Made by a program: the position numbers
Part shown: one piece after another, positions 1-3,000 of the stretch
Layout: the number at the start of each line of letters is the position of its first letter
Position numbering within the stretch: position 1 is the first letter of the stretch
Source of the DNA: a virus
Lineage: Duplodnaviria; Heunggongvirae; Uroviricota; Caudoviricetes
Length of the DNA: 5,542 bases
Reading direction: 5' to 3' (one strand)
IMG/VR virus record: IMGVR_UViG_2529293069_000017

Positions 1-3000
1 AAAACCTCATTCAGTAATTCATATCAGTTTGCAGGATGTTTCATTAAATAAAATAAAGGGTAATGTTCATTTCAATTACCCTTTATAACGAAGTTTCCTC
101 TGGTATCGTCATAAATGCATTCTTCATGTTTTACAATTATTGATGCCGTTATTGGTTCCCGGGTCAGTGGGTGGGGTAAGCCTTCACCAGTCAAACGAGA
201 AAATGCAGCGGCATCAAATAAAGTACATACATCTGAACCATCTGAATTCTTCACAAAAATACCTTTTTCAGGCTGCTCCAGTGTAATTGGACATTGAATA
301 GCCTCAAGCGGGCACTGAAGTCTCTCTGGACAAACAGAAAACTTACATTGAGATATTTTGTTCTGAATACTCTCTTGCGATTGTGCTTCACCTGAGTCCG
401 AAAGCATACTTAGCATTCTCTCACCAAGGGCTCGAGGACCACTATTAAATCCCAAAAGCAATAACTCAGAAAGCAATCCGCCATTACCGCCACTGGATGA
501 AAAGCGCCCATTAGTAGAATCATACACAATACTGACAGTTTCACCACCGACTGTAATATCTCCGCGCCCATTGGCTACAATTCGGGCACGAACAACCTCC
601 ACCCCAAGATTAAATGAATGTGATCTAATATCTGAGGTTAATGGCATAACAAAGCTCCCTATTTTAATTTGAACTCCAGACTTAAATAGCTGTAACAAAC
701 ATCCCCCATACGTGACAACAAAAACCAGAGCAGGACTCCGGTTTTTGTGAACCCGTCGGCTATTTCATCCCGCCAATATTTTCCCACCTCCCGTCAGCAC
801 GCAGAATTTGCAGCGGTCTTACCACGCACTGTATCTGCTTTTTATCCGCATCCAGTATCACCACCTGTGTGATTACCCTGTCCTGCTCCGGAATAATGCC
901 ATTCTCATCTGACTCCAGGATGTCTGCCGGCCCCAGTCGCAGTTGTACTGTAAGCGACTGCCCGTGTTCACAGTCATCATGCTTTCCGCAACCACACAGA
1001 CGCTCCATAAGCTTTCTCAAAATATTCATGTCATTCTCCTGTTCTGCCTGTATCACTGCCCACTTCATCCAGTCCCTTAACATCCTGCCACGGCCCGTCG
1101 CCAAACCTGACCTGCAAATGCCGAAACAGCCCCTGAACCTGTGTGGCATCTTTGGGGTCAAGAAAGGTCAGTCCGGTGATGAGTGCACCATCTGTATCCG
1201 GGAACCAGCCATGGCTGTTTGTCTCAATAATGCTCGCCGGCCCCAGACGAAAACGGATTTGTGTCTCCCCCGGGTCGCCCTTCGGTCCCTGAGGTCCGGT
1301 TGCCCCCACCGGGCCAGCCGCACCTGTTTCTCCTTTCGGTCCCTGTGGGCCTGCCGGGCCTGCTGCCCCGGTGTCTCCCTTTGGACCCTGTGGACCTGCA
1401 TTTCCCGTCAGACCGGTCTCTCCCCGCTCTCCCCTGTCACCTTTCGGCCCCTGCGGGCCTGCCGGACCAGCATCACCTGCCGGTCCCCGTTCGCCGGTTG
1501 CCCCGACAGGGCCGGTGTCACCGCGCTCTCCCTTATCACCCTTCGGCCCCTGAGGACCCGCGGGCCCCTGTTCCCCCTTTGGCCCGGGAGGTCCCACCAC
1601 GGTGGGGATTCGGTTTACGGCCTCTTCCGCCGCTATCCTGCTTTGTTCCGCTGACTGTGCGCTTTCTGCTGACTCCCGGGCTTTTTCTGTTGCGGTCGTT
1701 GCATCCCTGGCTGCATTACCGGCTGCACTTTCTGCCGTCTTTCTTGACAATTCAGCTTCTGCTGCACTTTGTGATGACTCACTGGCTTTTTGAGCGGCCG
1801 CAGAGGCCGAGGACGAGGACGCCTCCTCTGACTGCTTTGCAGCGGCTGCACTTTCTGCCGCCTGCCGGGCTGACTCCGATGCATCCCCTGCTGAAGTGTC
1901 AGCATTTGCAGCGCTCTCTTCTGCCTGACTGGCTGATATGCCGGCATTCCTCGCGGACGTCTCCGCCTCTCCGGCATTCTTCTTCGCCTCCTCAGCGTGA
2001 CGCGCCGCTTCTTCCACCATCAGTTCAAAACGACGCAGTGCCTCCGGCCGGACGTCATCCTCCGACATGGCACCGAGAAAATCATTCAGCGTACCCGGTT
2101 GAGAATCTTCATACACGGTGATGGTCCCGGCATGTGACGGCGGGAATCCTTCCACCAACAGAATGACGCTGTACTGACCGTACTCAACGTCCATGCTGTA
2201 ACGACCGGCTTCATCCGGATTTTCAGAGGCCACCGTGTTCACCACCACCGTGCTGCTGGTCCGTCTGGCTTTCAGTTGAATGGTGCAGTTCTCTACCGGT
2301 TTTCCTGTGCCGTCTTTCAGTACACCTGAAATCTTTACTGCCATATTCACCCCACAAAAAAGCCCGCCTGAACCGGCGGGCTGTCATAACACTGTGTTAC
2401 CTGAATCAGAACTTATAACCGACACCCACGATGAAACCGTCAGTGCGCCAGTCGCCACTGCCGGAGCCTTCATAAGCAATATCAATGGCCACGGATTCGG
2501 TCGGGTTAAACTGCACGCCAGCCCCCCACGCCAGAGACGTGTTGCTGTGGCGACCGTCATCACTTCCGGTCAGCACATCGTGCGTTTTCCCCTTGTTGTC
2601 AGTTACGCGGAGATAATCCCCGGAGAAAGTCGACACACGGCTGTAAGCCACTCCCGCCATCGCATACGCGCTGAACCATTCATTCACGCGCACAGACGGC
2701 CCCGCCATTACGCTGAACCAGCGGTTACGAACGGAATCTTCATGCCAGCGGGTATCGCTGTAATGGGTCAGCTGGCGATTCTTGTCTCCTGCATAGCTGA
2801 ACGACGTCACCATCCCCAGTGTGTCCGTAAACTCATAACGGTATTTCACGTTAATCCCGTTCAGTTCATCGCTGCCAGGAACGTTCGTCGAGACATGAAG
2901 ATACCCCGCGCTCAGCGTGGACTGATGTTCAGACGCCCATGCAGGCGCACCGGATACGGCCAGACAAATGGCTGCGGACAAAATGGCGGCATAAAGTTTA

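Follow-up and report, generated by a model that had tools for sequence, protein, structure and literature searches.

The DNA analyzed here, called the window at its full length of 5,542 nucleotides, belongs to a virus of the Caudoviricetes (IMG/VR record IMGVR_UViG_2529293069_000017) and is 98.9% identical overall to the prophage adjoining ompN/uspF in Escherichia coli O157:H7 strain 493/89. The annotations in 493/89 comprise gpJ, Ail/Lom, a "prophage tail fiber N-terminal domain-containing protein," a "phage tail fiber C-terminal domain-containing protein," and three DUF1076 (NleG) proteins. The window has the J-lom-stf order of lambda, with all of these genes on the minus strand, and an Rfam scan of the whole window returned no match. 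The features we assigned, with the evidence for each, are as follows:

3072-5542, minus strand: J-type tip-attachment gene, 3' two-thirds (ORF and Pfam)
2406-3005, minus strand: lom (Ail/Lom outer-membrane protein), directly upstream of stf (Pfam PF06316, E 2e-120)
2361-2382, minus strand: putative terminator-like hairpin and T-run between lom and stf (consensus scan)
1995-2533, minus strand: the sole high-identity (88%) lambda DNA block in the lom-stf region, spanning the 3' end of lom, the intergenic stretch, and stf nt 1-350 (window compared with lambda 15000-23500 by blastn)
1031-2344, minus strand: stf-type gene for an EPclA-type collagen-containing side tail fiber, 437 aa plus stop (ORF, Pfam, PHROG, and RefSeq)
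2063-2344, minus strand: tail-attachment (collar) domain PfN / gpStfN, aa 1-94 (lambda identity and PDB match)
1997-2062, minus strand: flexible linker and first coiled-coil residues, also lambda-like, aa 95-116 (recombination boundary at the 3' end)
1595-1996, minus strand: Ala/Ser/Glu-rich heptad coiled coil (PCoil) and short collagen junction, aa 117-250 (heptad register)
1262-1594, minus strand: collagen triple-helix stalk, aa 251-361 (regular-expression count and Pfam)
1034-1261, minus strand: PfC distal knob (Phage_fiber_C, PF06820), aa 362-437 (Pfam)
760-1029, minus strand: stand-alone PfC paralogue of 89 aa with a Cys-rich N-terminus (Pfam PF06820, E 3.9e-36)
72-698, minus strand: NleG-family effector gene (ORF and Pfam)

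The fiber reading frame is intact, running for 437 codons from an ATG at 2344 to a TGA at 1031-1033; the coordinates given in an initial annotation of this DNA are exact, and the strand, absent from it, is minus. Pfam searches of the product placed PF08400 (phage_tail_N) at residues 1-133 (E 6.3e-69), PF01391 collagen repeats from residue 251 (E 3.7e-18), and the full length of the PF06820 (Phage_fiber_C) profile at residues 363-426 (E 4.2e-36), and the protein falls into the PHROG tail-fiber families phrog_366 and phrog_3279. Its amino acid sequence is that of RefSeq WP_000268963.1, the copy carried by the Sp4-like prophage on the tccP2 side in strain 493/89. An exact-sequence look-up of the 437-aa fiber in a collection of 15 billion returned no entry, and given the RefSeq identity we take this look-up to be incomplete. 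Relative to the syntenic copy of 493/89, the fiber differs at six residues (A370G, S371N, H378N, Q402R, L406F, and R408Q), all six of which lie in PfC. The flanks of the window match the syntenic, ompN-side prophage of 493/89, and from position 2373 to position 1122, 11 of the 12 informative sites carry the state found in the Sp4-like prophage beside tccP2. What is visible in the stf segment looks like a conversion-like exchange between prophages, for which the data leave either direction possible.

Our lambda reference was the 774-aa Stf of Ur-lambda, rebuilt by combining lambda orf-401 with orf-314 extended upstream. At 437 aa, the fiber has 56% of this length, in agreement with its initial description as about half as long as lambda Stf. 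Aligned without gaps, residues 1-95 are identical to lambda Stf at 87 of 95 positions (91.6%), which bears out the near-identity initially proposed for this part. Over residues 1-116, the ungapped alignment still holds 103 of 116 identities (88.8%), with 16 of the 21 residues at aa 96-116 being identical. We place the break with lambda at codon ~117 because the DNA match ends at window position 1995; a lambda-like N-terminus was thus correctly recognized at the outset, but its end was set too early, at residue ~95. The same N-terminus matches the "tail fiber protein" chain of PDB entries 9e7m/9mgh (E 2e-51), i.e., the solved collar domain of Ur-lambda (PMC12617516). The cryo-EM study of Ur-lambda describes Stf residues 1-94 as a beta-sheet-plus-helix domain, 12 N-terminal copies of which form a collar at the gpV/gpM junction and lead into four trimeric fibers (PMC12617516). 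Both marks of a lambda Stf-type fiber, homology to the gpStfN collar domain and a position after J and lom, are found here.

Downstream of the break, laying the sequence out in sevens reveals an A-x-x-A-x-x-S register that is clean from aa 117 to ~242, and the alanine autocorrelation of this Ala/Ser/Glu-rich segment (A 33%, S 18%, E 15%) peaks at lag 7 (0.39) and lag 14 (0.37). In lambda Stf, residues 102-393 make up a "proximal coiled coil" that is trimeric and has this same Ala/Ser composition (PMC12617516). Against lambda Stf 111-380, the segment aligns in several registers at 32-44% identity without composition correction, with a Smith-Waterman z of 7.2 above composition-preserving shuffles, and under composition-based statistics no significance is left. 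Demonstrable colinear homology to lambda was therefore set aside, being significant only without the correction, and since significance is lost with it, we assign the segment to a structural class only. Judging from its sequence, it is a shorter form of lambda's proximal Ala/Ser coiled coil, with ~130 residues compared with ~290 in lambda Stf. Calling the segment unrelated to lambda Stf, as was initially done, is wrong in kind, as both belong to the same class of Ala/Ser heptad coiled coils.

The distal half is a different matter. The collagen stalk consists of 37 uninterrupted Gly-X-Y triplets (aa 251-361, 111 aa by regular-expression count), and its coding part contains a 45-bp tandem duplication at 1309-1399. 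Residues 248-437 gave no significant match to lambda Stf (E > 0.3). Searching the whole window with lambda Stf 394-774 gave no match either, the distal gp37-like tip being absent, and tblastn of lambda Tfa against the window found nothing better than E 7.5. The stalk and the C-terminal domain of ~76 aa match nothing in lambda Stf, as first proposed, and the window holds no remnant of its distal half.

For the PfC domain, AlphaFold2, given an alignment of 19 rows spanning both PfC subfamilies, produced a low-confidence model with three short strands (mean pLDDT 62, pTM 0.46); Foldseek matched this model to nothing in the PDB at better than E 2.9. The model suggests a beta-rich PfC, in agreement with published circular dichroism (CD), and is useless beyond that. 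Searched exhaustively with an HMM, 1.84 billion representatives contained 94 PfC proteins, most of them E. coli family fragments; the family hardly extends beyond Escherichia, Citrobacter rodentium and Salmonella each contributing stray relatives. Matches in multiple stretches of giant proteins (a coral protein and a Calx-beta/RTX adhesin) resemble weak noise from repeats and were rejected. Separately, the metagenomic collagen-containing protein P0244 was seen to carry a PfC-like half-motif repeated four times.

The architecture of the fiber is already known: it is that of EPclA, described by Ghosh et al. in 2012 (PLoS One 7:e37872). The mosaic reading in the initial annotation is supported, but the exact architecture is a named and characterized family (PMC3368898). 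EPclA proteins have 437 aa laid out as PfN, PCoil (116 aa), Col (111 aa), and PfC (PMC3368898). The fiber here has the same length, one 111-aa collagen stretch, and a coil that we delimit by its heptad register at aa 117-~242. The features that define EPclA, namely PF08400, an Ala/Ser heptad region (PCoil) between PfN and the collagen, a single uninterrupted collagen domain, and PF06820, are all present. ECs2717, ECs1992, and Z2147 of E. coli O157:H7 are EPclA examples with the same architecture in the setting of lambdoid O157 prophages, and we found no difference of substance between them and the fiber. Each of the O157:H7 genomes Sakai and EDL933 contains seven to eight EPclA copies (PMC3368898).

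Much is established for recombinant EPclA (rEPclA), which when expressed alone, in a laboratory strain, is a soluble trimeric dumbbell, its trimeric, triple-helical, and coiled-coil nature having been demonstrated by SEC-MALLS, analytical ultracentrifugation, CD, and rotary-shadowing EM (PMC3368898). It contains a collagen triple helix by CD with a Tm of 42 C and a trimeric coiled coil with a Tm of ~50 C (PMC3368898). PfC has little helix, trimerizes alone by SEC-MALLS, and lets the collagen refold rapidly, and PfN is largely monomeric (PMC3368898). Given its near-identity to EPclA, we assume that the fiber here trimerizes likewise, its collagen part as a triple helix and its coil as a three-stranded coiled coil. 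Ghosh et al. also noted that PfN is common to lambda Stf and ascribed the modularity to recombination among prophages (PMC3368898).

The distribution of the gene's parts bears on this modularity. A match to the gene is present in 4737 of 5426 complete E. coli genomes, mostly to nt 1-350 only, and at least 80% of the gene is matched in only 693 of the 5426; across these genomes, similarity stops repeatedly at gene nt 350. The Rac gene stfR of K-12 matches the first ~350 nt at 93.4%, and matches to the first 116 residues extend from lambda and Rac to phages of Serratia, Salmonella, Yersinia, and Aeromonas. The distal part has other company. Over residues 249-437, the fiber is identical at 178 of 189 positions (94.2%) to the 645-aa fiber of the short-tailed Stx2 phage Min27, whereas the anchor, residues 1-101, is identical at only 29 of 101 (28.7%). 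Because Min27 shares the distal part but not the anchor, we regard the gene as a true mosaic: a lambda/Rac-type anchor in the 5' 350 nt and a collagen-PfC cassette common to short-tailed Stx phages, a conclusion that sequence comparison supports well. Together with the recurring boundary at nt 350, the Min27 comparison upholds the earlier proposal that modules have recombined distal to an attachment domain that is itself conserved.

Querying by tblastn with the C-terminal 78 residues yielded 296 phage records, every one an Stx-converting phage or a related E. coli phage with an identity of at least 80%, and nearly all PfC-bearing phage records have two PfC places each. At least 80% of the fiber gene is covered in 141 phage records. 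The best full-length phage matches, at 98-99%, are in Stx1a- and Stx2c-converting phages, VT1-Sakai and phage 2851, with VT1-Sakai H0004 (the Sp15 copy) showing 98.6% DNA identity. The fiber of Escherichia phage lambda_2B8 (Stf, NC_049952, gp23) also has 437 aa and is 97% identical to the fiber here, with 15 substitutions, mostly in the anchor. Lambda_2B8, which came from a child fecal E. coli isolate upon prophage induction (preprint 10.64898/2026.04.10.717836), has the same layout of J, lom, stf, and a small PfC ORF, with an NleG gene further downstream.

The small PfC ORF is the second element of the locus. It starts one base past the stf stop, carries AGGAG 7 nt ahead of the ATG, and encodes 89 aa with 38% identity to the fiber's own PfC. 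As a PF06820 protein directly 3' of stf, it occupies the place of tfa, the chaperone gene of lambda. In Min27, the same 89-aa ORF likewise begins one base past the fiber stop, and the collagen-PfC cassette travels together with it. This pairing is shared with the EPclB fibers (645 aa), whose members are 933W L0121, Sp5 ORF67/ECs1228, phi24B gp61, and Min27 gp61, and which resemble the fiber here in having a collagen-PfC distal module followed by the same PfC ORF. EPclB differs in its anchor, whose point of attachment is a podovirus adaptor/nozzle instead of a siphovirus tube, and in having two collagen segments split by a Pf2 repeat where the fiber here has one. The EPclB protein Sp5 ORF67 is essential and was located to the tail by immuno-EM; Sp5 ORF68, the 89-aa homologue, is dispensable and has been proposed to serve as a reservoir sequence (PMC5155283). 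It is conceivable, though unlikely, that the 89-aa paralogue, translationally coupled and traveling with the collagen-PfC module, is a functional tip partner and not a silent reservoir. The protein could, for example, cap or co-assemble with the PfC knob and so alter fiber binding. If true, Stx-type phages of both tail morphologies would share a two-component tip for the primary receptor.

With these elements in place, the locus very probably encodes an EPclA-type side tail fiber of a lambda-like (Sp10/CP-933O-like) EHEC prophage, the gene being a recombinant. The fiber shares with lambda Stf the collar domain, the linker, the start of the coil, the place after J and lom, an Ala/Ser trimeric shaft, and presumably an accessory role in adsorption. 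In place of lambda's hinge, distal six-chain coil, and gp37-like OmpC-binding tip, it has a collagen helix and a PfC knob. As we envisage it, three chains would make one fiber, with assembly starting at the C-terminus, where PfC would trimerize alone and nucleate the collagen helix from that end, while the Ala/Ser coiled coil would serve as a second trimerization element. The lack of a Tfa-type chaperone gene would be explained by this capacity of PfC to trimerize alone and nucleate collagen folding. The shaft would run from a short linker through the trimeric coiled coil and a flexible junction into the triple helix of 37 triplets, and the N-terminal beta domains of ~94 residues would dock on flexible linkers into a 12-membered collar at the gpV/gpM junction. 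By analogy with Ur-lambda, we infer four fibers per tail.

The PfC knob would make the first, reversible contact with the cell surface before J-mediated irreversible binding. By analogy with lambda Stf and the T5 fibers, it is the most likely contact point and would have an accessory role in adsorption. The flexible collagen shaft argues against signal transmission, and PfC could therefore be a folding or trimerization cap only. As for the receptor, it is the gp37-like tip that, with Tfa, mediates OmpC binding in lambda (PMC12617516), and because this tip domain is missing here, the lambda/T4 mode of OmpC binding would not apply. Its loss is a reasonable reading of the domain content, and the receptor other than OmpC foreseen in the initial annotation is reasonable to the same extent, since it too argues from the absence of the gp37-like tip and Tfa. 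The six lateral fibers of phi24B consist of gp61 and are held by their N-termini; BamA/YaeT, assigned earlier to the EPclB fiber, is now a doubted partner, the phi24B authors questioning whether the small C-terminal domain of gp61 binds BamA (preprint 10.64898/2026.04.10.717836). The closely related lambda_2B8 fibers, according to a report as cited in that preprint, fail to recognise MG1655 BamA (preprint 10.64898/2026.04.10.717836).

Whether the gene still serves the prophage in which it lies has to be weighed against the state of the J gene: a single additional base near 4296, not present in the intact J of strain 493/89, splits it into two ORFs. The J gene of the Sp4-like paralogous prophage of 493/89, beside tccP2, is frameshifted as well. 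The prophage may therefore be unable to build an infectious tail alone, and the fiber may need recombination or complementation. One could go further and regard the gene as a decaying or idle relic in a defective prophage, with no role there and kept only by gene conversion among paralogues. An O157 genome has up to 16 matching places, some copies are defective (Table 2 in PMC3368898), and the stf segment carries another prophage's allele between flanks that match the syntenic prophage, all of which would suit such a history. However, the 437-codon frame is intact and its amino acids are identical to those of another copy, and the 89-aa ORF downstream is intact too, with its Shine-Dalgarno sequence. 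The frameshift in J could be an assembly error, being a matter of a single base. In addition, recombination of defective O157 prophages is reported to give rise to new phages (PMC3368898), and an intact fiber cassette therefore keeps its value. We consider a mere relic quite improbable.

Even less probable, to a degree that makes it a very distant alternative to a tail fiber, is that the protein is a bacterial collagen-like surface or secreted factor acting on the animal host, comparable to streptococcal Scl and carried as lysogenic-conversion cargo and not as part of the virion. The idea draws on the fact that collagen-like proteins of other pathogens bind host components, with Ghosh et al. 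leaving room for a role that serves E. coli itself (PMC3368898), and on the neighborhood, in which lom upstream and NleG downstream are host-interaction genes and the terminator-like hairpin sets stf apart from lom; the near-restriction of the PfC family to Escherichia would also fit. Yet a scan of positions 600-3100 found no sigma-70-like promoter, and known expression is tied to prophage induction (PMC3368898). The N-terminus also weighs against such a factor, because it is the tail-collar domain, 92% identical to the domain solved on the lambda tail, with no signal peptide or secretion motif. Immuno-EM and cryo-EM place related fibers on tails.

As a discovery, the side tail fiber has little weight, since the family, the domain names, the mosaic relation to lambda Stf, and the trimeric structure were all published in 2012. 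Its place in the biology of these phages is of wider interest: fibers of this collagen type occur in several copies per EHEC genome and also on Stx-converting phages. The distal module is common to long- and short-tailed Stx phages, and knowing its target would help explain which strains acquire Shiga-toxin phages.

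When the side tail fibre gene stf was compared with two homologous prophages of Escherichia coli O157:H7 strain 493/89, the gene offered 12 informative sites, in a segment spanning approximately positions 1122-2373. Of these, 11 matched the Sp4-like prophage next to tccP2, and the sequence flanking this segment matched the syntenic ompN-side prophage of the same strain. On these sequence comparisons, the segment resembles a conversion-like patch between prophage alleles. The patch produces six amino-acid differences, every one of which lies within the C-terminal fibre domain (Phage_fiber_C, PF06820), and together they correspond to two common haplotypes of that domain, AS..H..Q..L.R versus GN..N..R..F.Q. 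The other features considered here are as follows.

72-698, minus strand: NleG-family type III effector gene (PF06416, E 7e-46), adjoining the fibre cassette downstream
760-1029, minus strand: 89-aa ORF, beginning one base past the stf stop codon, its ATG preceded by an AGGAG at a distance of 7 nt
1309-1399: tandem duplication inside the collagen-coding region (two copies of a 45-bp unit, 80% match)
2361-2382, minus strand: strong terminator-like hairpin with T-run on one side of lom (8-bp stem, 7 G-C pairs)
3035-3054, minus strand: strong terminator-like hairpin with T-run on the other side of lom (8-bp stem, 5 G-C pairs)
3072-5542, minus strand: tip attachment gene J, present as two overlapping ORFs, one at 4216-5514 and the other at 3072-4352

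The hairpins flanking lom fit, at the level of predicted structure, with lom being a separately controlled "moron" within the late operon, and with such hairpins in place antitermination would be needed for late transcription to reach stf. The lom-stf intergenic region also has 3 bp deleted at 2403-2404 relative to both 493/89 prophages. Beyond lom, the J reading frame breaks around position 4296 because it has a single base more than the intact gpJ (3477 nt) in strain 493/89; this base lies outside any long homopolymer. The split is either a true pseudogene, in which case the prophage would be defective, or an assembly error. At the opposite end, phage lambda_2B8 has an NleG gene in the corresponding position, as in the window, and in the closest genome the NleG gene is followed by two further NleG genes.

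Within stf itself, the 45-bp repeat is a plausible substrate for in-frame variation in stalk length among fibres of the EPclA family, whose copies are reported to have collagen stalks varying in frame from 63 to 144 aa (PMC3368898).

The 89-aa ORF has a Cys-rich N-terminus (LCGCGKHDDCEH) and carries a second Phage_fiber_C domain with just 38% identity to that of the fibre. It is present alongside the fibre in nearly all phages bearing the domain, long- and short-tailed, and across cluster representatives its Phage_fiber_C part is nearly invariant and its N-terminal part variable. Its homologue in the Stx phage Sp5 is non-essential (PMC5155283). The collagen-containing 565-aa metagenomic protein P0244 has four copies of an approximately 85-aa unit, and the C-terminal half of this unit (…VVVL.ADE…GQMGILRVRQADGTWKEIPA.KG) is similar to the latter half of Phage_fiber_C. 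This repeat likeness suggests that Phage_fiber_C originated in a bead-like fibre module of wider distribution.
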